The notes below the pieces were generated by a model. It saw only the letters and a program-made list of their open reading frames with translations, was not told the DNA's origin and did not search any database. 64,000 nt of DNA from a virus (lineage: Duplodnaviria > Caudoviricetes), in the IMG/VR virus record IMGVR_UViG_2548876929_000003, positions 4,825 through 68,824 of that record. One strand, written 5' to 3'. The translations under genes and the position numbers were made by a program. This document shows, one piece after another, positions 21,073 to 64,000 of the stretch. Positions within the stretch are counted from its first letter, which is position 1, and each line of letters starts with the position of its first letter.

Positions 21073-24000
21073 TAAGACTTACCTCCCCTCGCTTGCAACC
21101 TCCGCACTAGGTTATCTCGTTCGCTCCAGAAAACCTTTGCTGCGGATTCATCTTCAATATAAGTATCGCCTGATTTTATTACGAACTGGTTGCTGATTTG
21201 CTGCGGATTTGAACCGCCCGAAGCCATTGGCATAGAGAAGTCTGGCATGGAGAAATTAAGTTTCGGCATCTTAAAATTGATAATTTTCCACAAGTTACTC
21301 TGTTGTTGACCATTCAAATACATTTCCCCTTCTCGGGCAATGACGGGTACCTCTGCTCCCTTCTGGCCTTGAACTATCCCACCAGAATGGAATTTTTGAA
21401 GTTTCCCTGTATCCTTCTTAATGCCATACTTATTCCGCAGAGCAGCATTTTCCTCGTGCAGTTTAGCCTTCTCGGCAGCGCCTGCTGAATACCATTTGTC
21501 AATATTAGAATTGTATCTCGCCAAATCGCTGTCCTTTTCTGATATTGAGGAACCTGTATCAAAGGATGCAGACAATGAGGTAGCATTGATTTCAGCCATT
21601 TTCATTTGATAGTCTAAGATGAATTGATCCAACTGACGCAAGATTTCTGCGTTTTTCTCAGATTCCTTTGAAATCTGAGTATTTTTCAAATCTTCAGCTT
21701 TAGATTCAACTCCGTCTGAGTACTCATCATATTTCTCGGCTAGCTGATCATAATGCTGTTTGGCAGCTTCAATCTGGTCATTGTAGTCCTTTTCCCGTTC
21801 AGTCTTCTCGTCTTGGAGTTTCTTCTTCTGATCCTCCAATCCACGCTTAGCAAGCGTCCGGTTATGTTCACGTTGCATATCTTCAATATCTTTTTCTGTC
21901 TGTTTCCGTTCGGCAATACCTTCGGGACCGACAGCAGATTGTAGTAGAGCAAGGCGCGCTTGTTTCTCCGCCATTGCACGTTCATAATCCTCGTCTTCGT
22001 TAGCTGTCTGCATTTTGGCAAGCAAGTCGTCTATGGCCTTAATTTTAGAGTCCTGAGCCTCGATAAAAGCATCCCGTTCCGCCTCAATCCGCTTTACTTC
22101 CTCATCCCGAGTCTTTTCAAGTGCTTCCTTTTCCTTCTTGGCAGCTTCGGTAGCAGCCTTCTTCTGATCCTCCAAAAGTTGCTTCTTCAAATCATGGACC
22201 TGTACATCAATTTCCATCCGTTGTTCTGATCCTTCTTTATAAAGAGCCTGCATTTTTGTCCATAAATTGAGCTGATCGGAAACAGATACGGCTTCCATAC
22301 TCTTTTGGTAATTGATTCGTTTTTGGAAATCGGACAGGAACTCATCTTCCAGCGCTTTACGTTTCTCATAAATCTTCTGTTGCAACTCAAAACTTTGTTC
22401 GGCAGTACGATCCTTTGCCTTACTCATACGCATATAAGCGTCATATTCCATTTTGAGGATAGCAATTTGGGTTTGCCCTGCCATCTCCATTTTGGAAGTC
22501 TCTTTATCAATCCACTTCTCACTGTTTTGATAGCGAAGCTCATTGTATTTGACGGTTAAATCATAGATTTGTTTGGCAATCTCTCTACGGTTAGCAGGAA
22601 GCAGATAATTTTTACTTTGCTCCTTCTTATAGAAATCCAGACTGGTTTTTACCATCTCAATTTCTTGTTTGTTGGCCTGCCGCATACGCTCGGTTCTTCG
22701 CTCAAGATTCAACACGTCTTCCTGAAATCTTGAATCATTCAGTTTCTGAACATCGCGGCTCCATTGCTTCATTGCATCCTTATCTTCCGATAGGTACTGC
22801 TTATGTCGTTGAGCCAGTCGTTTGTATCCTGCAATCTGCTGGTTTATAGACCATTCATTTCGTTCAGCGATATACTTAAAGTTATCAAGATCGTCATCAT
22901 AACTATCTTTTCGTGCCGCAGATGCGTCCTTGACTGCTTTTTCAGCTGCACGTTCCGCATCGCTCTTGCCTTTTTTGCCCCCGCTTCCCTTCGATTTTTT
23001 CGAACCAGAAGAACTCACACCAAATTTAGGATCGTTATATAGCTTGGTTAAAGCATTAATCTGAGTGTCATACTGCTTCATATCTTTCTCGTATCCGCTA
23101 TATATTTCGCCTATATCTTTTTTGCTTTGCTCCATGTTTTTCTTGTCTTGGTTTAACTGGTTCTGAAAAGGAGCATTTAGGAAAGATTTCACTCCGGTCA
23201 TGTTGTTTAGTTCTTTTTGTTTATTAAAAACTTCTAATGAACTTTGAGCCATAACTCCATTCAATCTAGCTTTTAACTCAGCAAGACTCTTAATCGCTCC
23301 AGCCTCTTTAATGTAGACTGCGATACGATCATCAGACTCAAGTTTTGTACTTAAACTGGACGCTTTTTCTGACTTTAGATCATCTATAGCCTTTTGTATT
23401 TTAGCTTTACGAACAACTTCGAGAGCATTCTTTTCGAAAGCCCATCCCTCAGATGTTTTGTAAATCTCCGAAGCTAATTGAGGGTATTTGAGAATTAATT
23501 CTGCCGCAGCTTCTGCGTTCATGGACTGTTTATTGGCAAGATCATTTAAAACAGTATTCATCTCAGAAATAGCCTTGCCGTTACCCTGAATCTGCTCTCT
23601 TAAATCGGCAAGAGCTTCCTCCTGTGATTTAACACTTTCGGTTGCTGTTCCAGCCGTCCCAGAAAATTGGTCAGCTTCTACAGTTGCTTGACCTAAAGCT
23701 ACTCCTACTTCTGTTACAGATAAAGTGAGCTTGTTATTTTCTTGTTCTAACGTTTTGATTTTTTCTTCTAACTTCGCAGCATCTTCCTTAAATTCGCCTG
23801 TTCCTAAAAAATTTCCAATTGGATTAGCAATGATCTTTTTTACTCGTTCCAGTTCTTTTGTAGCTTCTGTGATTTCATTTATTTTTTGTTTTTGTTGTTC
23901 GATTAATTGCGCTTGCTGATCTTTCAATACATTTTTCCGGGCTTCATTCTGCTTCTCGATGAGTTTGTTCAACGCAGCAACTTGCACCTGCACAGCTTCA

Positions 24001-35519: not shown

Positions 35520-36323
35520 TTACAAAGGTGGTTCAATATCATTAGTATTGTTTTGAGAATTCACAAGTTTCTCAATAAACGGCGGTATAGGCAATCCTGT
35601 CACCTTCATATTATCAACGGTTCCTTTAAGCTCGCCCCATACTAGCCATACCAATAGCAGAGAATAAAATGTGTTGTCTGGCAAGCCATCAAATGAAACG
35701 AATTTACTCAATACGTTACCTATAAATAACCAAAAGTATGGGAGAATGAATATTTGAACTGTCCGATTGAATTTTATATAGTCATTTGGCGTATGATATC
35801 TATTTGCCCATACACGAGAAATAAAATGGGCTACTGTTAAAGAAACAAAAACCCAGTTCAGAGTAGTAAACTGTCCAAATAGCAGCGTTATAACTGCACC
35901 GAGTAAAACAAAGAATAACTTAATGCTTGGGACAGCAACAAAGTCGGAGAAATATCTGCTTAATTCACTCATACCTACAAAAGGAAAGAAAGAGGCTATA
36001 TTTCTCATTAATTTCTCACCCCTTACCATGGGATGCTTATAAATATGCTTTTCCTTTGTTTTTATTACTTTCTGTTCTTCAATAAGTTTATTTGTACTCT
36101 CAATAAAATTTGATGCAATCTTTAGCATTTCCTCATGCTCATACTTTATCTTGCTTTGATCACTAGCATTTAGTACTTGCCAATAGACAGAGCGTGTTTC
36201 ATTCAATACATATTCTATCTTTTTTTCAATTCTTTTAAGTTCCTCGTTTGACTTATCATTTTCTCTGAAAGATTGTATTTCTAAGAAAATATTGCTTCTT
36301 TCTTGGTACAAATCATTCTTCAT
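35520..36323 (-). CDS. Soluble N-terminal domain fused to a holin-4-like membrane domain
   Basis: C-terminal half aligns by eye with the holin at 12040 (GELKGTVDNMKVTGLPIPPFI vs NELLSILENGGRLGAPIPPVI). Confidence 0.6.
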   Translation of the reverse strand: MKNDLYQERSNIFLEIQSFRENDKSNEELKRIEKKIEYVLNETRSVYWQVLNASDQSKIKYEHEEMLKIASNFIESTNKLIEEQKVIKTKEKHIYKHPMVRGEKLMRNIASFFPFVGMSELSRYFSDFVAVPSIKLFFVLLGAVITLLFGQFTTLNWVFVSLTVAHFISRVWANRYHTPNDYIKFNRTVQIFILPYFWLFIGNVLSKFVSFDGLPDNTFYSLLLVWLVWGELKGTVDNMKVTGLPIPPFIEKLVNSQNNTNDIEPPL

Positions 36324-36981
36324 ACGTATCGCCAGCCTTATGCGCCAAAAAGGACAAATTCCCCTTCGTTTGCAAAGATAAATACTTATTCATTTCAGAT
36401 AATGATTGTATACATAGAGAATCAAGGTTACTGTATAAATCTTGAGAGTTTATCAATTTCTTATCTGTTTCAATTTCTGAAAAAACAATATTAGGCTGTT
36501 CATCTCTATTACTTTCATCGAATATTCTTATTCTTGTTGTAGTATCATTAGCATTTTTTACTGTAAATTGAACATCTACAGATAAAATATCCTCTTCTTC
36601 TAAACTTAAACCAAGCAGTTTTTTATTATCTTTTATCATAAACCCACCTATATGAACAACTTTTTTTATGACAAGTTTGTCAAAATCAATTTCTTTAACA
36701 AGCACATCTATAAATTCTTTAAATTTTTTTGTCCAATCCTTAACAATAGCAATTGTAATATCAATACTCTTTGATCTAAACTCACATTTCATTATAGGAA
36801 AACATTCGATAAGTTGTACATGATCCGGTGAAATCTCTACTTTTTTGAATTTGAAATTTTTTTTAATTATCTCCAACCATTTTAATTCAACCTCTTGAAT
36901 ATTTAGGTCCAAATAACTAAGTTCAAGTTCAACTACCATAGGTTTAAAAGTATCAGCTTCCTGTAAGTTAGATGAAAACAC
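36313..36981 (-). CDS. Hypothetical soluble protein, translationally coupled to the holin-domain gene
   Basis: GTG start after AGGAGG; 11-nt overlap with the next gene; AT-rich. Confidence 0.7.
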   Translation of the reverse strand: MFSSNLQEADTFKPMVVELELSYLDLNIQEVELKWLEIIKKNFKFKKVEISPDHVQLIECFPIMKCEFRSKSIDITIAIVKDWTKKFKEFIDVLVKEIDFDKLVIKKVVHIGGFMIKDNKKLLGLSLEEEDILSVDVQFTVKNANDTTTRIRIFDESNRDEQPNIVFSEIETDKKLINSQDLYSNLDSLCIQSLSEMNKYLSLQTKGNLSFLAHKAGDTYEE

Positions 36982-37515
36982 AAATTGTTCCTCCTACTAT
37001 AAATAAAAAATCATTCTCTTATAGATTTAATATCTCATTATCACCAGAAAGTGTCAATATCGAATGGACAAATATAAACATTTTATGTATTAAACTTCAA
37101 TCCATATAGGTCTTAATACCTGTTTTAATGAACTGAGCGCTTATTTAAAACCCGAAAAAAGAAACAGCGATAGGGTCTACTCCCGCAAGCGGGATGCAAA
37201 ACGCTACGCTGTTGCATAAAAGCATTGTACTTAGTAACTAGAGAGGAAGAATAACACCATTTTACATATTGCTAAAAATGTCCGTCAAAGAACAAAAACC
37301 GGACAATACCGGAAAATGGGTAATTAAACCATTATAAGCTGGCTTTTGCTCACTTTCTCGATATTACTCGTCCTAAACGATTCTCTCACCCAGTTTATCC
37401 TCATCACCGGAAGCCATTACATTACATCCCAACTTGAATCACAAAAGAATGCGCCCATTGTTGTATGTTCGAGCTCGGGTTGGTCGACCTCTTCAATGCA
37501 TACTTTATGATAAGA

Positions 37516-38029
37516 TTATTGCAATTCTCCTTTAGCATTGGCTATGCGAACTGAAAGGCCGCCCTTCATAACACCGCCGGGTGAAGTAAGGTTTACATAG
37601 AAACTACCAACAGGCCAAGTACTTTCGTTGATTTCATCAAATACTTTACCTGGGGTTTATTTTTCCTTTCATCTTAACTGGACCACTAGCAGACTCCTGA
37701 GTTACTGTTATATTAATCGGGGCTTTCCCATCATTATACACATACACTCTAGCATATCCGTATCCCGGATCAATGTAGAAACGCTCTGACATGTCAGTAT
37801 TCCCAAGAGACTTGTTGAGTACCTTTTTCGTGTCTTGAGGAGTAATAACATGATCCCCCAGTTTTGATGTATTCACCTCAATAGATTCATTTGCAGCTTG
37901 AACTACTGGCGCTGAGTCCACAGTAGCTGAATTTATACCACTGATAACTGAAGAAGTACAACTAGTTAACGATAATACAGCAGCTAAAGACAATACAGCA
38001 AAGAAAGGAGTCATTCCACTATTTTTCAT
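37516..38029 (-). pseudogene. Frameshifted lipoprotein gene (extra base in the C4 run at 37652-37655)
   Basis: Lipobox LSLTSC; removing one C from AACCCCAGG extends the frame to GKVFDEINESTWPVGSFYVNLTSPGGVMKGGLSVRIANAKGELQ-stop at 37516. Confidence 0.7.
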
Positions 38030-38139
38030 ATTATAAACCCACTTTTTTCAATTTAAAAGATTAATTTCTTATAATAATATTATAAGGTTTATTTTGTAAT
38101 TCTCAAAGAAGGATTGGCGATCCCCTTAAATTCAATCTT

Positions 38140-38550
38140 CTTTTAGATGCCGTGGCCTCTCACCGGAAAGGCTTCCCCTCTAGAAGAGCACGCAGCGGAA
38201 TTGAACCGCGCAAGGGTTCTGACCAGGCTGTTTCATGTTTCCGCTGGTTAACTGGTTCCTTGCCGCCTGCGCGTGCCATGAATAATGTAGGCGGGGGCCA
38301 CTCTTCCCCCGTATGAAATGACTTACCGTTTAACCGCAATCTGCAAACTGTGTCGATCTACCGCTGTGCGTTACGGGTGCCAAGGATCTACCCTTGTTCG
38401 CGGCCACATAATCGGGCCTTCCCTTGCGCGCACTGGTCTATGCCGCTGAGCAGTATGTCCCTCTATCCCCTTGCAGGAGTCACTGAGGCTATTTAACTGT
38501 CATCTGCAGGTGTCATCCTACGTTGTAGCGTCTCTCTTCCGCCACCACAT
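38140..38550 (-). ncRNA. Putative large structured non-coding RNA with tRNA-like elements
   Basis: GC-rich stretch with no credible ORF; D-arm-like GTGGCGGAAGAGAGACGC; T-loop GGTTCAATTCC closed by an acceptor-like stem; long-range complementary segments. Confidence 0.55.
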
Positions 38551-38557
38551 TCAAAAA

Positions 38558-38818
38558 CTACAGGAGCTCTGCTGCGAGTTGCTTGAGCACCAACGGTGTT
38601 GGGATGAGTTGGCCATCTTTCTTGTTACCCTTAACATAAGCCTTGTCCTCACGAGCATAATAGACAACGCCTTGGCCCTCGACGATCGGAAATGCCGCTT
38701 TCATCATCCGTCAGGGATGTTTGTCGTGCTTACCATGTTGAGCAGCATGTTCTTCATCGTGTAAGTGTAAAATACCGTCAGAGCTGAGAAATGCAAAGCG
38801 TGGTTGTGTAGTAGACAT
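38558..38818 (-). pseudogene. Disrupted paralog of the 84-aa gene at 44729..44983
   Basis: MSTTQPRFAFLSSDGILHLH...FPIVEGQGVVYYAREDKAYVKGN; in-frame TGA between apparent compensating indels; RBS AGGAGG. Confidence 0.75.
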
Positions 38819-38998
38819 GATCAAATGTCCTCCTAATATGTTTTGTAGAAAAACCAAAAAGGCTGGCACGTTGTCCGACCTGAGTCACCGAAGCTTGAAA
38901 GCTGCAGTTTCGTTCCTTATTTGATTTTCCATGATACAAATTTACGTCATTAAAAGTCCAACCGTGAAACATAAGAGGCCATTTCCCCAAAAAAAATA

Positions 38999-39955
38999 CT
39001 ATTCCCATTGGCCAATCGTGAAATTACTTCTCCAAGTCCACAAATCTCCTAATCCAGTACCAGTAATACTCACAGAGCCTAAAGATAAAGCAAAGGGCAC
39101 CTCAGTGTATGAATGAGCATAACTATTAGCAAAGCTTCCTGTACCACCACCATGCGCTGCTGGTATTCTTACTTCAGTATATAAAGTTCCGTATTGTTCT
39201 TTGATAGGTATTAAACGGACCGAACCAATAGTTCCCGAAACTTGTGATTGGTCAATATTACTGAATTCACCATCATGCCAGTTTCCATTTGCTGTACGAT
39301 AAAAGAAATCCGCTTTTGACCCAACGGCTGAAGTATGGGATTGGAAAGCATGCGCTACCCTATCAGATAAGGTAATCCAAGGGATGTTGCTCCAGTTAAA
39401 ATGTGTTCGGTATGAGTACTTGTACTCTCTACCATTAGCCGTTTTCCCCATATAATGAATTGAAGAAGTGCCTGAAAAAGTACCGTCGTTAACAGATCCC
39501 ATTGCAGATGTGCTAATTTTATCACCTTTTATTTTCTTTAAATCAGCTTCTTTGATTTTGTTAATTTCAGCTTCATTTTCTGGTGTAATTATATGCTCCT
39601 TACCACTAAGATCAAAGTATTTGTGGACCATTTCACTTTGGGTTACATTAACTTTTACTCCACCCTCAGTAATGAGGTAAACTTTTTCCGACTCAGAGAG
39701 TTCTTCACTTTCTTTTTCAGTATAGCCCATTTCGCTTAAGATCTCATTTTGTTGTTTCTCCGTCAAAGCCTTTGCATTCTCAATCGGCTCAATACGGCCA
39801 TCAGAAAATTTTTTAACCGTTAGATTGTTGTCAATTTTCAGGGGAGTATAGTCCATTACTTTCATTTCTGCCGAACTAGACGCGCTAACTGAGCCTTGAG
39901 AAAACGCAAGGAGTCCAACTACCACAAGCGAGAGTAACCCTGTCTTCTTTTTCAT
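38999..39955 (-). CDS. Secreted protein with a beta-rich C-terminal domain, function unknown
   Basis: Signal peptide MKKKTGLLSLVVVGLLAFSQGSVSA; ORF track. Confidence 0.7.
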   Translation of the reverse strand: MKKKTGLLSLVVVGLLAFSQGSVSASSSAEMKVMDYTPLKIDNNLTVKKFSDGRIEPIENAKALTEKQQNEILSEMGYTEKESEELSESEKVYLITEGGVKVNVTQSEMVHKYFDLSGKEHIITPENEAEINKIKEADLKKIKGDKISTSAMGSVNDGTFSGTSSIHYMGKTANGREYKYSYRTHFNWSNIPWITLSDRVAHAFQSHTSAVGSKADFFYRTANGNWHDGEFSNIDQSQVSGTIGSVRLIPIKEQYGTLYTEVRIPAAHGGGTGSFANSYAHSYTEVPFALSLGSVSITGTGLGDLWTWRSNFTIGQWE

Positions 39956-40742: not shown

Positions 40743-42200
40743 TTATCTTTTTACAGTTACACTACCTATTGAAGGAAGCATAATATGTGTATCTGGTTCC
40801 ATTAAATATTCCCCAAATGTCAAAACAAAAGCGTCAGCTCGGTCTGGCGACTTGAGCCCACGCTTTTTCATATCCTTCTTACTTTCAAGTAGCATTTTAC
40901 CCTTACTGGTCATGTTCCATTTACGTGCTGTAAGTTGGGTTATAAGAACATCGTCATCGGGCAATTGCAGAACGCTCACATCTCCATTTATAAAATTGCT
41001 CATATTCTGTTCTAATTGTTTCTTAATGGATGCCCACATTTCAGTAACTAGATTTCCATAGTGTTCATCTAATGAAGAGGAGCCGTTGTTAATTGGAATG
41101 ATTTCATATGGTAGCCCTTCTTCAGCTACGATTTCATTTAGTCGATCGGTTACTCCTCCACCTACACCACTATCATCAACTCTTATTCTGATTCGGTTTA
41201 AATATGGATGCTCTTCATTTAGTTCTTTAGCCAGGCTGATCACCCAACCAGCAGTAGCCATTGTGTCTTTCTTGAAATGATGGTGTTCCCCTACAATTCT
41301 TGGTCCTATACCAGCAAACATTGAGGTTTCATCATCACCAAATCGTGCAACGTCAACGCCTATGGTTAGCATATCTCCAGTAGGTTCCAGTTTCACTTCT
41401 TTAGCTGCAAATTCTGCTACTTCCAACGAGATAAAGGTATCCGATTCTCCACGGGGGAATTCACCTTCAACCCGGACTCTCCATACATCGCTACCTTCAC
41501 CATACTTACGCTTGAGCATAGCGATATTATCCTTACTGGTTCTTGGGCTGTCTAAGCATGACACCTTGCGTGTTTTATAATCCGCTCTGTCCTTATTGTG
41601 TGAATCATAAAAAACACCCGACGTTTTTGTCGGGTTGCCGCACATCAATATTTTATTGAACTCACCCGACAACGTACCTAAAATGGCTTCCATGATTGGA
41701 TCAGCAACACCTGAAGCTTCATCCACAATGAAAAGCATGTAGTCCTCATGGAAGCCCTGCATATTCTCAGGCTTGGTTGCTGTCCGAGCTGTAGCGAACC
41801 AGCGTTCCTCATAGTTCTTCATGTAGATTTTGGTTTTAGTCCATTTAAGGATTCTTTTCAGCACTGGGCTTTTGGACTGCCATTTATTTATCTCAGCCCA
41901 TAACACGTCATGTAACTGCTGTCTTGTAGGAGCTGTACAAATCACTTTTGGATAAGGGAAACAGGATAGAAACCAAAGGGCTGTTGCAGCTTCTAGTCCG
42001 GTTTTTCCTACACCCTGACCTGAACGGACTGAAACACGAGGATCATTTGCTAAATCCATAAGAGTGCTTGCCTGCCAATCATCAGGATAGAATTTAAGCA
42101 TCTCTTGGCAGAATAATGTAGGATTCTTACGATATTCAGGAATCCGTTTCTTGAATGCTTGAAGCCTCCGTTTCGTCTCCGGTGAGTCTTTCGTCTTCAT
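40743..42200 (-). CDS. terL: Terminase large subunit
   Basis: Walker A SGQGVGKT, Walker B VDEASG, GNPT, nuclease GVDVARFGDD and SPDRADA. Confidence 0.95.
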   Translation of the reverse strand: MKTKDSPETKRRLQAFKKRIPEYRKNPTLFCQEMLKFYPDDWQASTLMDLANDPRVSVRSGQGVGKTGLEAATALWFLSCFPYPKVICTAPTRQQLHDVLWAEINKWQSKSPVLKRILKWTKTKIYMKNYEERWFATARTATKPENMQGFHEDYMLFIVDEASGVADPIMEAILGTLSGEFNKILMCGNPTKTSGVFYDSHNKDRADYKTRKVSCLDSPRTSKDNIAMLKRKYGEGSDVWRVRVEGEFPRGESDTFISLEVAEFAAKEVKLEPTGDMLTIGVDVARFGDDETSMFAGIGPRIVGEHHHFKKDTMATAGWVISLAKELNEEHPYLNRIRIRVDDSGVGGGVTDRLNEIVAEEGLPYEIIPINNGSSSLDEHYGNLVTEMWASIKKQLEQNMSNFINGDVSVLQLPDDDVLITQLTARKWNMTSKGKMLLESKKDMKKRGLKSPDRADAFVLTFGEYLMEPDTHIMLPSIGSVTVKR

Positions 42201-43425
42201 TACCTACCACCGCCTCTACCCAATCATCAATTAGATCGTCTTCTGTATTGCCTTCACCCGTGACTTTTGCCCTTTCGAGCTCAAGTTTCTCACGCTGCAT
42301 CTTAAGTTTCTCGTCTTCAACCATCCGTTTATGTTTGTCTGGAAGCAGATCCATGTATTTAGTTAGCACGTCTAATGCCTTGGTTTTGTCGTGTAGCTTT
42401 ACACTCACTCCGTCCTTACCCTGCTTGACTTCTGAAACCAGAGTTCCATCAATTTCATCACTGTTTTTAAAAGAGACATAATTATATCTGTACTTCTTCG
42501 TTTCTCCAGTCTCAGAATCAAAGACAGGGTCTCCATCTAAACCAAGAACGTCCTCTTCCTTTTGACCAAATTCCACGTAATCCGTAATGTCTGCAAAAGC
42601 TATCTTCATGTACTCCATCAGTACGCGCTGAGCGTTCAATCCTATCTCATCAATCATAGATTCTTTGTGCTGCCGAATAATGTTTTGAATTTCAACTTTC
42701 TTCAACAGAGCGAATCCAATCTGATAGGCAGTTTTCTTACTGTATCCCGCCGCAATGGCTGACCTGGTAGCGTTGAAGTCTCGAAGGTATTCATAAGTGA
42801 ATATCCTTTGCTTAGGCGTTAATCCATCCTCATCAGGAATTTCAGGTTCAGGTTCTTCAACAACCACTGGAGCGCTCTGTACTTTTTTAGAACGTTCCAT
42901 ATTACTGGAGCGTTCCGATACCTTTTTCGGAGCGCTCCGTATTTCTGGTATAGCAACTTTTAGCTCTTTAGCAAGTGCGTCAACTGTAAGCGGGGTAGCA
43001 TATACCTCTCTTGGCTTATCATCTCTATATGTACCAATGAGTCTGCGCCGCTCCAGTTCATCAATCAGTCTGGCTGCTCTGCTATAGCCTATCCTCATCC
43101 TTCTCTGTAATAAAGAAACCGAGGCTTGTTTGGCCTCGGCTACAATTTGGACAGCTTTTAGAAAAAGCTCATCAGGATATGATGTTGGGTCTTCATCTTC
43201 ATCTGGAGCTTCTTTATTATAAGGCGCTCCATTTTCATCAGAACGTTCCGTATCCTTCACTTCTCCAGCAATTAAACTCTCCCACTTATCTTTAGCCTTC
43301 CATCCTCTTACCGTACCTTCAGATACACTAAGTTGAGAGGCTATATCTGTGAGACGTATGTTGCCGGAACTGGTTTTGTATAAATCGAATGCTTCATCCC
43401 GTTTTGGATCTCTTTTTCGTCCCAT
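42136..43425 (-). CDS. terS: Terminase small subunit with an inserted FtsK/SpoIIIE gamma domain
   Basis: N-terminal HTH (TVRGWKAKDKW); gamma domain at aa ~85-142; TerS core LTPKQRIF..EYLRDFNATRSAIAAGYSKKTA. Confidence 0.9.
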   Translation of the reverse strand: MGRKRDPKRDEAFDLYKTSSGNIRLTDIASQLSVSEGTVRGWKAKDKWESLIAGEVKDTERSDENGAPYNKEAPDEDEDPTSYPDELFLKAVQIVAEAKQASVSLLQRRMRIGYSRAARLIDELERRRLIGTYRDDKPREVYATPLTVDALAKELKVAIPEIRSAPKKVSERSSNMERSKKVQSAPVVVEEPEPEIPDEDGLTPKQRIFTYEYLRDFNATRSAIAAGYSKKTAYQIGFALLKKVEIQNIIRQHKESMIDEIGLNAQRVLMEYMKIAFADITDYVEFGQKEEDVLGLDGDPVFDSETGETKKYRYNYVSFKNSDEIDGTLVSEVKQGKDGVSVKLHDKTKALDVLTKYMDLLPDKHKRMVEDEKLKMQREKLELERAKVTGEGNTEDDLIDDWVEAVVGNEDERLTGDETEASSIQETDS

Positions 43426-43613
43426 AATCTTATTATTCCCCCTTTTCGATAATGTATCTGAAGCTAAGGGAAAGTTTCCTGTACAAAAATAAAAAGCTTC
43501 TAATTCAGTGACTCTTCATTCTAATACACGTTGTACTTTTTGCCTTATCAAATAGTACAATCAAATCTACACAATCTTAATAATATAGTAATTATAAAGG
43601 AGGTGTAAAATCA

Positions 43614-43964
43614 ATGAATGCAAAATCGCCAGTTAACCAAAAGAAAATATTAAAGCCAAAAAAGAAACAAGTTGCTCGCAAATTTAAGCGTGTTGCCCTA
43701 AGACACAAAGATGCAAATGCCACTATTTTCCTGGCAAACAATTTTTATAGAGATGATTTCATAAGATTTATTCCGGCAAATACAAGATATACTTTCACCT
43801 TTATAGCTAATAACGTCAAAACAATAAGCGCTGGTTGGGATAATGATAGACACCTACCAGGTGTTGTTTTGAGCTATCCACAAGGTAACAACTGGGTAGT
43901 TGTTATTCAAACCCCTACCAACCAATCTTTCACTGCAACATTCTCTTTCGTATATACATCTTAA
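43614..43964 (+). CDS. Hypothetical moron protein between the terS-leader repeats
   Basis: RBS AAAGGAGGTG; own terminator (GCTGAGTAG/CTACTCAGC plus T7) at about 43979-44012. Confidence 0.7.
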   Translation: MNAKSPVNQKKILKPKKKQVARKFKRVALRHKDANATIFLANNFYRDDFIRFIPANTRYTFTFIANNVKTISAGWDNDRHLPGVVLSYPQGNNWVVVIQTPTNQSFTATFSFVYTS

Positions 43965-44025
43965 TGTCTTAGTTGTTCAGCTGAGTAGCTTGTTGTCTAC
44001 TCAGCTTTTTTTGAGATAATACGTA

Positions 44026-44160
44026 CTAGTTCAGTAAACATATGATACTCAATATATAAGCTGTTCTATTTTTAATACAAGCACGCTTGATACCACTTTT
44101 TTGGCAAGCTTTGCATAAATCAAATACTTCGTCCCGTTTCGGGTCTCTCTTTCGTCCCAT
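44026..44160 (-). pseudogene. Duplicated 5' fragment of terS
   Basis: MGRKRDPKRDEVFDLCK... diverges after ~15 codons and stops at 44026. Confidence 0.75.
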
Positions 44161-44232
44161 GCTTTGTTATTCACCCCTTTTGATAATGTATCTGAAGCTA
44201 AGGAAAAGTTTCCTGAACAAATAAAAAAGCCA

Positions 44233-44472
44233 CTATTCAGCAGCTTTCTCTTGTTTTTCTTTGTATTCCCTTAGATATTCCACTTCAATTTGGAAACCTT
44301 TTTTATACCAATTTCGTCCAAAGAATTCCCAGTAGCCCTCTTGAGTATGGTATTCTTCTTTAATATGTTTCCAATCCATATAATTTGTAAGAAAGTGTAC
44401 CCAAATGAGTGATGATAATGATAGCGGTATGATTACAAAAACAATTATAAAGTCTTTTAATTTTTTGTTCAC
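44233..44472 (-). CDS. Small membrane protein
   Basis: ORF track; N-terminal TM helix; RBS AGGAG. Confidence 0.6.
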   Translation of the reverse strand: MNKKLKDFIIVFVIIPLSLSSLIWVHFLTNYMDWKHIKEEYHTQEGYWEFFGRNWYKKGFQIEVEYLREYKEKQEKAAE

Positions 44473-44559
44473 TCAAATTCATCTCCTATATTGTTCCATA
44501 CGATAGTATCGACATTAAGGATGCAGAATTTTATATAACAATACTTCATTCAAAATTAA

Positions 44560-44725
44560 AAAGAGCAGCTATTTTACGCTGCTCCTGTTGTAGTGATCGG
44601 TAATTTATAACATGCGGTTACCGCTAATCCGCCATGCCTGGAATAGGCCTTCAATGGACATCCTTCTTGCTCCGGGTTTATATTACCCTCTGAGTCCTGT
44701 CTCCGATTTAGTTTTAGTTTTGAAA
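44560..44725 (-). ncRNA. Putative small structured RNA or long 3' UTR ending in a terminator
   Basis: No ORF; hairpin CATGGCGG..CCGCATG; terminator GAGCAGC/GCTGCTC plus T-run. Confidence 0.35.
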
Positions 44726-44728
44726 AAA

Positions 44729-44983
44729 TTACTGAAGCTGACCAGCTAGCGTTTTAAGGCCACTTGGTACTGCGATTTGTTTACCATCATGTTCATTTCC
44801 GTTTACATAAGCTGTGTCTTTGTCTACATAGTAGACTACACCTTCCCCGCCGATAATCGGGAAGCCGCTTTCGTCGTAATCCAGATTTGTGCCTACATAC
44901 TTGCCATGCTTGGCTGCTTCACTTTCCAACGGATGAAGGTGTAAAATCCCCGCATTGTCCAAGTAAGCGTAACTATGTGCCAT
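44729..44983 (-). CDS. 84-aa phage hypothetical protein (first gene after the late activator)
   Basis: ORF track; RBS AGGAGG; paralog at 38558..38818. Confidence 0.8.
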   Translation of the reverse strand: MAHSYAYLDNAGILHLHPLESEAAKHGKYVGTNLDYDESGFPIIGGEGVVYYVDKDTAYVNGNEHDGKQIAVPSGLKTLAGQLQ

Positions 44984-45026
44984 GTTTATTGCCTCCTAGA
45001 ATAGATTTAATTTGTTCCTGAATAAA

Positions 45027-45067
45027 GTGTAAATCCTTTCTACTCCGTACTTACTACGGATTTACCT
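45027..45067. promoter_or_regulatory. Inverted repeat at the putative late promoter
   Basis: GTAAATCC...GGATTTAC enclosing CCGTACTTACTACGG, just past the activator terminator on the - strand. Confidence 0.45.
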
Positions 45068-45113
45068 TACTCTAACAACAAATAAAGACCGCAAAGGCTT
45101 AAGCCCTTACGGT

Positions 45114-45752
45114 CTAATTTACTTCTGGCATCCTCAGCCCAATTTCTCCTTCTTGGTTTCGCCCCCGGCCATAGTCTATGGTGACAAAATCCAATGTACG
45201 GTTTGTTTTTAGGCTGTTTGCTATGTTGACAATAAGCCTACGCCGTTTATCTGCAAATGTAGTCGCTGAGATAGGAGGAATGTCCTTGCGATAACCTTTT
45301 TCCAAATATTGTTGAGCTTTGAGATATTTCATACCATCCAAAAATAACAGCTTTGCTATCAATCCCTCGTGCTTATCACGCATATTATTTATTGCAAACT
45401 TAATGTTATTCGTAAGGAATTGATAGAATTTATAATTCACATGTCGCTGGTCTTTGAGTAGCACGGCATTTGCTGTCACATCTGCTGTCAGTTCTTGCCC
45501 CGAGACTCGCTTAGCAACCGATCCCTCTGCCGAAAGCAAATCATATGCAGCCATGCCGTTTTCCAATTGTTGAAGTGAGTATTCATAGTTTTTGATTACA
45601 TCAATTAAGTCAGTATATTTGTTTAGCAGCCACTTTGTTTTTCTTATATCTACTACATCTACATCGTCAAAGAAGTTTACTTGGATTATCTTCTGTGTAT
45701 CAGTAGCATCCTCTTCTTTGTTACGTATAACTACAGAATGTCCGTTTACCAT
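45114..45752 (-). CDS. ArpU/RinA-like late transcriptional activator
   Basis: Last early gene before the packaging module; helical C-terminal region (LIAKLLFLDG...TFADKRRRLI); followed by a terminator. Confidence 0.6.
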   Translation of the reverse strand: MVNGHSVVIRNKEEDATDTQKIIQVNFFDDVDVVDIRKTKWLLNKYTDLIDVIKNYEYSLQQLENGMAAYDLLSAEGSVAKRVSGQELTADVTANAVLLKDQRHVNYKFYQFLTNNIKFAINNMRDKHEGLIAKLLFLDGMKYLKAQQYLEKGYRKDIPPISATTFADKRRRLIVNIANSLKTNRTLDFVTIDYGRGRNQEGEIGLRMPEVN

Positions 45753-62812: not shown

Positions 62813-64000
62813 ATGGCAAACTTTAAAAGATTAAAGAGTGGTTGGCGGTATCGGTTAAAGTACACCGATCCGTTTACACAGCAACAAAAGGAGAAGTCAG
62901 AACGGGGATTCCGTACAAAACCGGAAGCAGAGTTAGCTGCAGCAGAATTTTTAAAGAGAATAAAACAAGGTTACGAACAGATTGACATGCCTCTCGTCGA
63001 TTATATAGAAAGTTGGATCATCAACTATAAAAAAGGAGATGTTAGAAAAAACACACTTAAACAACATATGAACAATCTAAAAACACACATTAAGCCTTAT
63101 TTTAAACAATTAATGATAAAAGATTTAAAACCAGATATGTACCAAAAATTTTTAGATGCTTGTTTAGAAAAAGGCTTAAGCCGAAGAACAGTCGAAATAA
63201 TTAACTCAACAGTTTACAGTGCTTTAGAACTCGCAGTAATTCAAGGAAAGTTAGAACGTAATCCTTGCATAGGATCAATTATTAAGGGAGAGAGGAAACA
63301 AAAAACTATTGATTTCATTGATTCTGAGGATATTCCTCGTTTTCTTTATACAGCAAGAGGATATGGTTATATATACTGGATATTTTTCAAGGTGCTGTTG
63401 GAGACTGGCATGCGTAAAGGTGAAGCCGCTGCTTTAAAGTGGTCTGATATTAATTTTAAGGAGAAAAAAATTCACATTAATGAAACTTTGGATTTCCAAC
63501 CTGATAACGAGGACGAGCTATTCGGGGAAACAAAAACCTTCAAATCAAAACGAACAATCAGTGTAAGTACATCTCTAATCAACGATCTAAAGTATCATGC
63601 TAGTTGGCAGAACCAGAATAAAATTAATCTCGGAGAAACAATGTACCGACATGATTTAAATCTCGTTCTATGTAGAAATGACGGACGTCCTATGCCGAAG
63701 TCAACACTATTTAACGCATTTAAGCGTATCTTGAAGCGCGCTAGTCTCGATGGAGTTTTGCGTATCCATTCTCTTCGTCACACTTACGCAGTGCTCATGC
63801 TTGAAGCTGGAGCCGATATAAAGTTTGTCCAGGAGCAGCTTGGTCATGGTAGTGTGCAGATTACATCTGATGTATACGCACACATTTCTAAAAAGTTAGA
63901 GAAACGTAACATAGACAGATATGAGGAATACACAAGCAAAATTCTCGGCTCAAACAATTTTAAGTCGGGGGACGTTTGGGGGACACCCCAGAAGAATTAA
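62813..64000 (+). CDS. int: Tyrosine recombinase (phage integrase)
   Basis: ETGMRKGEA (R), RIHSLRHTYA (HxxR), LGHGSVQITSDVYAH (H, Y); N-terminal arm-binding domain. Confidence 0.97.
   Translation: MANFKRLKSGWRYRLKYTDPFTQQQKEKSERGFRTKPEAELAAAEFLKRIKQGYEQIDMPLVDYIESWIINYKKGDVRKNTLKQHMNNLKTHIKPYFKQLMIKDLKPDMYQKFLDACLEKGLSRRTVEIINSTVYSALELAVIQGKLERNPCIGSIIKGERKQKTIDFIDSEDIPRFLYTARGYGYIYWIFFKVLLETGMRKGEAAALKWSDINFKEKKIHINETLDFQPDNEDELFGETKTFKSKRTISVSTSLINDLKYHASWQNQNKINLGETMYRHDLNLVLCRNDGRPMPKSTLFNAFKRILKRASLDGVLRIHSLRHTYAVLMLEAGADIKFVQEQLGHGSVQITSDVYAHISKKLEKRNIDRYEEYTSKILGSNNFKSGDVWGTPQKN

Follow-up and report, generated by a model that had tools for sequence, protein, structure and literature searches.

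An FtsK/SpoIIIE-type gamma domain between two DNA-binding modules of a Paenibacillus prophage small terminase subunit

Introduction

Little is understood so far of how a small terminase subunit (TerS) chooses the DNA that is to be packaged. A TerS that carries the direction-reading domain of a chromosome pump is a natural experiment on this choice. The question raised by such a protein is what the domain reads and whether it directs packaging on phage DNA, on host DNA or on neither. If it reads polar words of the host type, phage packaging would be linked to chromosome architecture. The domain could then determine how often genes move, and in which direction, in soil- and plant-associated Paenibacillus.

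Fusions of an FtsK gamma domain to TerS were described in two phages of Bacillus, vB_BcM_Sam46 and vB_BcM_Sam112, together with the same hypothesis of KOPS/SRS-dependent loading and transduction (Kazantseva, Piligrimova, Shadrin 2021, Sci Rep 11:12173; PMC8190038). Because the basic fusion and the hypothesis are already in print, the gain from the present locus is a better-defined system and not a new principle. What sets the present locus apart is the position of gamma between two other DNA-binding modules.

The phage and its terminase genes

The DNA that was analyzed is a stretch of 64 kb, referred to as the window. It comes from a 68.8-kb provirus record rated 100% complete by CheckV. A tyrosine integrase gene was located at window positions 62813-64000 and portal and major head genes were also present. 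The following terminase features were identified.

42136..43425, minus strand: terS, small terminase subunit gene, encoding the 429-aa protein P0001 (open reading frame list, Pfam, AF2 model)
43267..43425, minus strand: N-terminal helix-turn-helix (HTH) module, PF10668 Phage_terminase, aa 1-53 (Pfam, pLDDT)
42997..43173, minus strand: FtsK/SpoIIIE gamma winged-helix domain, aa 85-143 (Pfam PF09397, PDB sequence matches, Foldseek, host identity)
42289..42822, minus strand: TerS body with G1P-type HTH and oligomerization core, Terminase_2, aa 202-379 (Pfam, Foldseek)
40743..42200, minus strand: terL, gene for the large terminase subunit; it overlaps the end of terS (PHROG phrog_2)

The terL product matched phrog_2 'terminase large subunit' (5.8e-49) and was 56% identical to TerL of Bacillus phage vB_BtS_B83. 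Experiments on phage B83 revealed headful packaging that starts at a pac site, with the pac cut mapped to approximately 95 bp upstream of terS (PMC6669507). The present phage is probably temperate, complete and of the headful (pac) type, with an integrase and a Paenibacillus host, a reading that forms part of the preferred explanation set out below. The initial annotation had included GTA-like packaging of host DNA among its suggestions. This is a misfit because the provirus is full-length, carries an integrase and was rated complete; a GTA or PBSX-like defective particle would be expected to come from a defective element devoid of replication and integration functions.

TerS was composed of three folded modules joined by two disordered linkers according to Pfam and AF2. 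PF10668 matched aa 1-50 (E 5.3e-20) and PF03592 Terminase_2 matched aa 202-379 (155.8 bits, E 1.4e-45). In the AF2 model, built from a 51-sequence alignment, the folded parts were aa 1-53, 85-143 and 200-390. The pLDDT was approximately 90 for both the N-terminal HTH module (aa 1-53) and gamma (aa 85-143) and below 50 at aa 55-83 and in most of aa 158-186. The disordered linker between the PF10668 HTH and gamma is acidic. The core aligned to the full-length SF6 small terminase 3ZQQ (Foldseek E 3e-4) and its HTH to the DNA-binding domain of SF6 G1P (4ZC3/2CMP, rmsd 1.1-1.6 Å, 46-49% identity). The profile match, the G1P-like HTH and core, and the location of the gene directly upstream of terL place P0001 among the Terminase_2/G1P-type small terminases. 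No match to the FtsK alpha-beta motor PF01580 was found in P0001 by Pfam and the protein is not a whole translocase. Several homologues are therefore misnamed 'cell division protein FtsK' at NCBI. Rfam and promoter/terminator scans of window positions 42000-45200 gave nothing above threshold for the conserved terS leader.

The gamma domain of TerS

The initial annotation had placed a close relative of the SpoIIIE/FtsK gamma winged helix at aa 85-142, in the stretch that separates the N-terminal HTH from the TerS core. The peptide that it quoted corresponds exactly to window 43000-43173 and the assignment was borne out by each method used. PF09397 FtsK_gamma matched aa 85-143 with an E value of 8e-24 and 83.6 bits, compared to a gathering cut-off of 30.6, and the alignment spanned profile positions 4-62 of 63. 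A sequence search of the PDB aligned the segment with solved structures of the FtsK gamma domain, namely 2J5P, 2J5O and 2VE8/2VE9 (E 3e-11 to 5e-10). Identity to the Gram-negative gamma structures was 39-46%. Foldseek superposed the modeled domain on the KOPS-bound Pseudomonas aeruginosa structure 2VE9 with an rmsd of 1.2-1.4 Å and a target TM-score of 0.87-0.89. For 2VE9, 2VE8 and 2J5P together the values were 1.2-2.1 Å and 0.77-0.89. A match of this strength lies far outside chance expectation, and the TerS insert is a true FtsK/SpoIIIE gamma winged helix.

KOPS reading by the gamma domain of Escherichia coli needs residues N1296, R1300 and E1303 (PMC2533119). The TerS gamma has S, R and D at the equivalent positions, where the host FtsK has T, R and D. 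At the same positions 83 cellular gamma domains had T (48), S (30) or A (5), followed by R in all 83 and D in all 83, while 81 TerS gamma domains had T/S, R and D/E. The N and E of E. coli were replaced in all sampled cellular gamma domains and likewise in the TerS gamma. The helix 2-3 consensus was nearly identical between the 81 TerS and the 83 cellular domains. The wing had diverged from that of the host FtsK/SpoIIIE. As the TerS gamma has the residue types of cellular gamma domains, it is plausible that it reads a host-like DNA word.

Probable host origin of the gamma domain

The TerS gamma was 72% identical to the chromosomal FtsK/SpoIIIE gamma of a Paenibacillus host that carries a 92%-identical TerS. 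The nearest gamma domains outside TerS were those of Paenibacillus FtsK/SpoIIIE proteins (66-74% identity). The recognition helix differed from that of the host translocase by a single T/S difference in a stretch of 26 residues. These values suggest that the source of the captured gamma was the ftsK/spoIIIE gene of a host in the Paenibacillaceae. Synonymous codons were TTA, AGA and ATA in the TerS gamma where the host ftsK gamma had CTC, CGC and ATC. The capture was not recent, since the codons have drifted to AT-rich phage usage. All carriers of the fusion that were seen belong to spore-forming Bacillales.

Gamma as an optional cassette

Among the 120 nearest TerS clusters 76 encoded the N-terminal HTH, gamma and core (N+G+C), 36 the N-terminal HTH and core (N+C), four gamma and core (G+C) and four the core only. 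On a tree of the N-terminal HTH plus core the presence of gamma required 12 changes, with at least seven of them forced by well-supported branches; the tree was constructed with FastTree only, from the best matches to come out of a single search with a length limit. In three pairs of sister TerS proteins a clean indel of the cassette was the sole difference. Gamma is thus an optional cassette, repeatedly gained or lost among close TerS relatives. It is dispensable in this TerS family. A survey of how widespread the fusion is had been suggested in the initial annotation. The fusion is patchy: it is frequent among the nearest TerS clusters but was found in none of 150 genomes of other Paenibacillaceae species.

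Repeated loss with no visible change in the rest of TerS is what would be expected of a functionless passenger that illegitimate recombination had placed in a permissive disordered linker. The disordered linkers on both sides of gamma, where insertions are tolerated, agree with such an origin. A neutral passenger was nevertheless considered very unlikely. Gamma was intact and strongly conserved across TerS proteins that are only ~50% identical overall, with invariant or near-invariant residues throughout helices 2-3. Its protein sequence was held while synonymous sites diverged, and nearly two thirds of the nearest clusters (76/120) carry all three modules.

The gamma domain of FtsK in E. coli activates a XerD-type recombinase, and gamma also regulates the translocase motor. 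The TerS gamma could similarly act through protein contacts, either by activation of a XerD-type recombinase or by allosteric control of the TerL ATPase. The second, protein-binding role of FtsK gamma is reflected in the XerD-gamma fusion structure 5DCF, which was among the sequence matches, and a XerC/XerD gene adjoins terS in the related phage B83. However, B83 has no gamma, and the conserved residues of the TerS gamma are those of the DNA-facing helix and not of a distinct surface. An action through protein contacts was considered very unlikely.

A decamer array in terS

The terS gene contains copies of the palindromic decamer RGARCGYTCY.

42869..42938, no strand assigned: four palindromic decamers RGARCGYTCY starting at 42869, 42889, 42907 and 42929 with a spacing of 18-22 bp, in the DNA of the gamma-core linker; candidate pac/TerS-binding repeats
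43240..43249, no strand assigned: fifth decamer copy, between the N-terminal HTH and gamma

As the fifth copy falls between the N-terminal HTH and gamma, the gamma cassette lies inside the array. All five copies in the 64-kb window are within terS (0.68 expected) and none of 100 shuffles reached five. The decamers were conserved in the terS genes of relatives (L002-L014), including those without gamma. They were translated in two different frames, as ERS or as S/N-A-P. Where a decamer encodes ERS the arginine codon was CGY in 27 of 27 cases, compared to 22% elsewhere in the same genes. The array is conserved at the DNA level.

A triple decamer array was present on 67 IMG/VR contigs and in 59 of these it was inside a terS gene. 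A PF10668-type N-terminus was encoded by 58 of the 59 array-bearing terS ORFs. The 58 ORFs had three architectures: 36 had another core, 13 were N+C and nine were N+G+C. The TerS of phage B83 has the same PF10668 start as P0001, followed in the DNA by three phased decamers at +181 to +223 of terS, but lacks both gamma and the Terminase_2 core. Phage PM1 TerS is headed by the same PF10668 module and also contains Terminase_2, yet there is no decamer in its terS. Sam46 terS is without the array. The array appears to track the PF10668 module across the three TerS architectures, and the assignment of the decamer to PF10668 is a correlation. It is a better candidate for the pac signal than a target of gamma. 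A full-text search of a literature collection returned no description of the decamer as a pac element and only unrelated uses, for example the CebR boxes of Streptomyces.

SRS- and KOPS-like words in phage and host DNA

The SRS of Bacillus subtilis is GAGAAGGG and KOPS is GGGNAGGG. A single copy of GAGAAGGG was found in the 64-kb window, 22 kb from terS, and GGGNAGGG had zero copies. No SRS-like polar G-rich word was detected in the prophage window beyond the purine bias of the coding strand. Two candidates were tried and rejected. The 32:6 ratio of GAGAAG toward the coding strand could not be told apart from coding bias. GAGAAGG in the gamma-coding DNA was dismissed as a cis site as it was not kept at synonymous sites.

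These counts bear on the hypothesis published for Sam46 and Sam112, in which gamma is the primary pac reader and one or a few SRS/KOPS-like words in the phage genome load and orient the terminase. The conserved DNA-reading residues of gamma agree with this. Sam46 has no extra DNA-binding module apart from gamma, and its packaging starts from one precise site (PMC8190038). By our own reading a G-rich purine word, GGGGGAAAGG, lies in the DNA at the mapped Sam46 cut (n = 1). For the present phage a primary role for gamma in pac recognition is nonetheless rather unlikely. Near-identical TerS proteins without gamma exist, which makes gamma dispensable, and the conserved cis element of terS is the decamer array, which also accompanies gamma-less TerS. 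The lone and distant GAGAAGGG and the lack of conservation of GAGAAGG at synonymous sites also count against it.

Host DNA was represented by 800 kb of Paenibacillus ottowii, sampled as two stretches of 400 kb with negative GC skew in both. No KOPS-like octamer stood out among the skewed 6- to 8-mers of this DNA, which reflected general purine/coding bias. The top skewed octamer was GGAAGAGG (45:4) and GAGAAGGG had a ratio of 24:4. In the 5.5-Mb host genome a pattern count gave 155 copies of GAGAAGGG, compared to 184 for the reversed control. No host word could be defined from the 800 kb. Among public sequencing runs, all of them stored as contigs, none contained more than 18% of the sampled words.

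The target of gamma could also lie in the host chromosome. A TerS ring with eight or more host-type gammas would be a multivalent reader of host SRS words, while the decamer array would serve as the ordinary phage pac. The headful motor could then be loaded in one orientation on the chromosome, leading to polar, high-frequency generalized transduction. Alternatively, the ring could compete with the single gamma-bearing FtsK/SpoIIIE, which would be titrated or blocked during division or spore formation. The near-identity of the recognition helix to that of the host translocase (one T/S difference in 26 residues) favors such a target, as do the headful lineage of TerL, a strategy that permits generalized transduction, and the occurrence of all carriers seen in spore-forming Bacillales. 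The wing has diverged from that of the host, however, and the patchy occurrence of the fusion (0/150) argues against a large general advantage. A host target, with either consequence, was judged improbable.

The initial annotation had proposed that the packaging motor is loaded or oriented at host SRS-like sites. The part of this that stood is the presence of a true gamma with host-like reading residues. The dispensability of gamma, the decamers as the better pac candidate and the lack of a polar word in the window weigh against the remainder. Directional loading is speculation, and so are enhanced transduction and any competition with SpoIIIE.

Proposed role of gamma in packaging

The explanation that best accounts for these results is a headful phage TerS that captured an optional gamma as an accessory reader and has the decamer array as its primary pac element. 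A probability of approximately 55% was assigned to this explanation as a whole. The analysis established the domain identities, the fold, the host-like sequence, the optional nature of the cassette and the DNA-level conservation of the decamers. We infer which module would bind which DNA and how packaging direction or transduction may be affected.

TerS would be organized as beads on a string, with the PF10668 HTH, the acidic linker, gamma, the second disordered linker and finally an SF6/SPP1 G1P-type TerS comprising an HTH and a ring-forming core. The packaging site would most likely be recognized through the phased decamer array in terS, which may be read by the PF10668 module, the G1P HTH or both. 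For gamma the most likely role is that of an accessory reader of DNA. In FtsK three gamma domains jointly grip the DNA word. Neighboring gammas of a TerS ring, held on long flexible linkers, could in a similar manner jointly grip a short G-rich SRS/KOPS-like word. Such a grip would add affinity or polarity to the loading of the terminase on phage DNA, and the same boost to loading on host DNA could follow as a side effect. Natural sister pairs in which the cassette is present or absent, and a decamer array that is conserved at the DNA level and translated in two frames, offer clean and easily built comparisons.

Comparison with known systems

Sam46 and Sam112 are the closest known systems. They resemble the present phage in having FtsK_gamma and Terminase_2 in one TerS polypeptide and in being phages of spore-forming Bacillales. 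Headful packaging, probable for the present phage, is a further similarity. Gamma is at the extreme N-terminus of the Sam46 TerS (aa 10-69, with Terminase_2 at aa 107-232) and there is no PF10668 HTH, whereas the gamma of P0001 has PF10668 ahead of it and the core behind it, which makes three DNA-binding modules in all. Identity between the two TerS proteins was only 34% over gamma plus the first part of the core, and 55% for the gamma domains. Separate captures of the P0001 and Sam46 gammas are suggested because each is closest to the FtsK of its own host group (PMC8190038). The Sam46 pac cut is 4.5 kb from terS, so that gamma-bearing phages do not as a rule have such elements close to terS.

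P0001 shares the Pfam family, the winged-helix fold and the residue types of cellular Firmicute gamma domains with FtsK/SpoIIIE gamma (2VE9, 2J5P). In FtsK/SpoIIIE gamma is carried on an alpha-beta motor with a membrane anchor, whereas in P0001 it is part of a ring-forming terminase subunit. The fold of SF6/SPP1 G1P (3ZQQ, 4ZC3, 2CMP) is common to the C-terminal 230 residues of P0001, with an rmsd of 1.1 Å and 46% identity for 4ZC3. G1P has nothing ahead of its HTH, in contrast to P0001, which begins with ~200 additional residues that hold two more DNA-binding domains.

Gamma proteins that stand alone or have other fusion partners occur in phages and mobile elements. The 'putative cell division protein FtsK' of Brevibacillus phage Jenst is, like P0001, a phage protein with gamma and without the translocase motor, but it is not a terminase subunit. 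Other gamma fusions were also observed in which gamma is joined to an Mrr-type nuclease (P0198, P0202), and these are not terminase subunits.

Domains and Predicted Fold of the Small Terminase

The small terminase (TerS) of the prophage, P0001, is a real and conserved three-module protein of a putatively headful temperate phage. Its three Pfam domains were all significant and did not overlap.

42136..43425, minus strand: terS ORF encoding P0001, 429 aa
aa 1-50 of P0001, minus strand: PF10668 Phage_terminase, the N-terminal helix-turn-helix (HTH) (Pfam E 5.3e-20)
aa 85-143 of P0001, minus strand: PF09397 FtsK_gamma, termed gamma (Pfam E 8e-24, 83.6 bits against a cut-off of 30.6)
aa 202-379 of P0001, minus strand: PF03592 Terminase_2, the core (Pfam E 1.4e-45)
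40743..42200: terL, large terminase gene, next after terS

The initial annotation had described an FtsK/SpoIIIE gamma domain in TerS. This was borne out by the Pfam match, by sequence matches to the solved FtsK gamma structures 2J5P, 2J5O and 2VE8/9 (E 3e-11 to 5e-10) and by Foldseek. The peptide originally quoted is aa 85-142 of P0001, exactly positions 43000-43173 of the window. AlphaFold2, with an alignment of 51 homologues as input, gave three confident blocks (aa 1-53, aa 85-143 and roughly aa 200-390). The linkers were of low confidence: aa 55-83 and most of aa 158-186 scored below 50 in pLDDT. In Foldseek the middle block aligned to the KOPS-bound P. aeruginosa gamma 2VE9 (rmsd 1.2-1.4 Å, target TM 0.87-0.89). 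The C-terminal part aligned to the SF6 small terminase 3ZQQ and to the SF6 HTH DNA-binding domain 4ZC3/2CMP (rmsd 1.1-1.6 Å, 46-49% identity). With this SF6-type HTH in addition to PF10668 and gamma, P0001 has three DNA-binding-type modules rather than two.

Comparison to Known Fusions

The gamma-TerS fusion and the SRS/transduction hypothesis are both already published. Bacillus cereus phages Sam46 and Sam112 have an "unusual small terminase structure" in which an N-terminal FtsK_gamma is fused to Terminase_2 (Kazantseva, Piligrimova, Shadrin 2021, PMC8190038). The authors proposed two roles: loading and orientation of the terminase at KOPS/SRS-like sites, and binding to SRS of the host, which could lead to mispackaging and generalised transduction. 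In the same study headful packaging was shown to begin at a single precise site, located 4.5 kb upstream of terS (PMC8190038). Gamma is N-terminal in Sam46 and Sam112, whereas in P0001 it is inserted between the PF10668 HTH and the core, and the P0001 and Sam46 gamma sequences are about 55% identical. In a collection of 50,697 phage records gamma was found within an annotated TerS only in Sam46 and Sam112, and no isolated phage matched 80% or more of the three-module P0001. What is new is the inserted position of gamma, giving three DNA-binding modules in one TerS, its repeated gain and loss among relatives, its apparently host-derived sequence and an array of decamers in terS.

The experimentally mapped pac cut of Sam46, at about 40,843, is located in an intergenic region with the G-rich purine word GGGGGAAAGG (positions 534-545 of Sam46 locus L137, about 40,833-40,844 of the Sam46 record). 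This is possibly a KOPS/SRS-like word, a single case and a lead only. Motor-less gamma fusions of other kinds were present among the gamma-only search matches (P0198, P0202, P0187). Such fusions include PF22722 with an Mrr-type restriction nuclease (PF04471) and gamma, and RCC1-type repeats with gamma.

Distribution and Origin of Gamma

Gamma is an optional accessory of TerS. Among the 120 nearest TerS clusters, 76 had the N-terminal HTH, gamma and core, 36 had the HTH and core without gamma, 4 had gamma and core and 4 had the core only. Carriers were Paenibacillus, Brevibacillus, Cohnella, one Bacillus thuringiensis record and metagenomes. A FastTree of the HTH and core (113 rows), from which the gamma columns were left out by construction, needed 12 changes in gamma presence, and well-supported branches force at least 7 of these. 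The sister pairs P0041/P0055, P0062/P0100 and P0059/P0103 were near-identical apart from a clean cassette indel. This repeated gain and loss provides natural controls. The fusion is rare per genome: none of 150 further Paenibacillaceae species genomes, sampled evenly, had it. A chromosomal FtsK gamma was present in all 150 and a gamma-less TerS in a few. Six TerS records (P0006, P0010, P0019, P0020, P0031, P0064) owe the name "cell division protein FtsK" to their gamma domain, wrongly, as they have no translocase motor.

The nearest non-TerS proteins to the P0001 gamma in a gamma-only search were Paenibacillus FtsK/SpoIIIE (66-74% identity). Identity to the gamma of the P. farraposensis chromosomal translocase was 72% (41/57), with one T/S difference across a 26-residue stretch through helices 2 and 3. 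Three Paenibacillus genomes with close prophage relatives (G001-G003), P. farraposensis among them, each encoded one chromosomal gamma-bearing translocase, of about 890 aa, besides the TerS copies. The simplest reading of these sequences is that gamma was captured from a Paenibacillaceae host gene, separately from the Sam46 capture. For the same gamma amino acids the TerS copies use AT-rich codons and host ftsK uses GC-richer ones, so the capture is not a recent one. A single FtsK/SpoIIIE-type gamma-bearing translocase per genome, of about 900 aa, was seen in G001-G003 and the 150 Paenibacillaceae genomes. B. subtilis has two such translocases, SpoIIIE and SftA. If that difference holds, one Paenibacillus translocase may serve both division and sporulation.

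KOPS reading by E. coli FtsK requires N1296, R1300 and E1303 (PMC2533119). The equivalent residues, taken from alignment to solved gamma domains, are S, R and D in P0001 and T, R and D in the host translocase. They were tallied across 81 TerS and 83 cellular gamma domains.

Residues at KOPS-reading positions
N1296 equivalent: TerS T 43, S 35; cellular T 48, S 30
R1300 equivalent: TerS R 73; cellular R 83
E1303 equivalent: TerS D 57, E 19; cellular D 83

The helix 2-3 consensus was nearly identical in the two sets, while the wing was looser in TerS. The kept reading positions and helix consensus indicate that TerS gamma is conserved as a DNA reader, and it seems to be a functional one of the kind found in the host translocase.

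Decamer Array in terS

The palindromic decamer RGARCGYTCY occurred five times in the 64-kb window, all within terS. The expected number was 0.68 per window and five copies were reached in 0/100 shuffles.

Starts 42869, 42889, 42907 and 42929 (span 42869-42938): four copies spaced 18-22 bp, in linker-coding DNA after gamma
43240-43249: fifth copy, before gamma

With one decamer before gamma and four after, the gamma cassette is flanked by array copies on both sides. Every relative examined (L002-L014) carried the array in terS, down to about 50% protein identity, and it was also present in gamma-less terS (at +206, +224 and +244). Translation of the palindrome uses two reading frames, giving Glu-Arg-Ser (ERS) or Ser/Asn-Ala-Pro. 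Arg was CGY in 27/27 ERS tripeptides, compared to 22% for the remaining Arg codons of these genes. Ser was TCY in 27/27. The rows come from related sequences and do not count as independent events. Because two frames are used and codon choice is fixed, it is the DNA that is constrained and not the peptide.

Among 2.9 million IMG/VR contigs, 67 had an array of three phased copies, and in 59 of these it lay inside a terS gene. The array-bearing terS ORFs included 58 starting with a PF10668-type N-terminus (36 with another core, 13 with the N-terminus and Terminase_2 core, 9 with gamma as well). Phage B83, whose TerL is 56% identical to that of the prophage, has a TerS with PF10668 but without gamma or Terminase_2, and its terS carries three decamers at +181, +202 and +223. 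Experimental mapping placed the B83 headful cut upstream of terS, at a distance of about 95 bp (PMC6669507). Phage PM1 has PF10668 without a decamer in terS, so the link is not absolute. The array is a candidate pac recognition element of this TerS family, probably read by the PF10668 module. A search of the available papers found no description of a phased RGARCGYTCY array.

SRS-Like Words

The B. subtilis SRS GAGAAGGG occurred once in the window, at 21327, and GGGNAGGG had zero occurrences in the 64 kb. GAGAAG was skewed 32:6 towards the coding strand, as were many purine-rich words, and the most skewed 7- and 8-mers of the prophage were ordinary A/G-rich coding words. GAGAAGG within the gamma-coding DNA was rejected as a cis site; it was not kept at synonymous positions. 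No octamer stood out as a host word in 800 kb of P. ottowii with the leading strand assigned from GC skew. There GAGAAGGG was skewed 24:4 but rare, and genome-wide in P. ottowii it was not above the reversed control (155 vs 184).

The initial annotation had suggested that host SRS-like sites may load or orient the packaging motor. This interpretation gains partial support. Gamma does look like a host-type reader, given its kept KOPS-reading residue types and 72% identity, but it is optional and the decamer array is the likelier pac signal. The word counts give SRS loading of the terminase no support, although it may still occur.

Prophage Context

The IMG/VR provirus record is 68.8 kb, has a CheckV completeness of 100%, and includes portal and major head protein genes. 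GTA-like packaging of host DNA, also suggested initially, is at odds with a provirus that is complete and bears an integrase.

62813-64000: tyrosine integrase
43375-43494 and 44110-44228: two copies of the terS leader and first ~50 nt of terS (78-88% identity), the second about 735 bp upstream of the first
44026-44160, minus strand: 44-aa stub ORF with a TerS-like start, left by the leader duplication
43614-43964, plus (opposite) strand: 116-aa gene bracketed by the leader copies
43979-44006: terminator of the 116-aa gene

The 116-aa gene had no match in Pfam or PHROG, and relatives L002-L009 have a single leader copy. The duplicated leader and 116-aa gene look like a moron insertion or recombination scar beside the likely pac region. 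The terL and portal genes are usually neighbours. Here about 4.5 kb of genes without known function lie between them (35520-39955), and a 267-aa protein in this interval carries a holin-family domain (PF05105, 2e-07). Contig NZ_VIJZ01000002.1 of P. ottowii has two prophage TerS copies (L002, L006) spaced exactly 59,740 bp apart, and its GAGAAGGG matches recur at the same offset. Either a tandem duplication of the prophage or an artefact of assembly could explain the pair.
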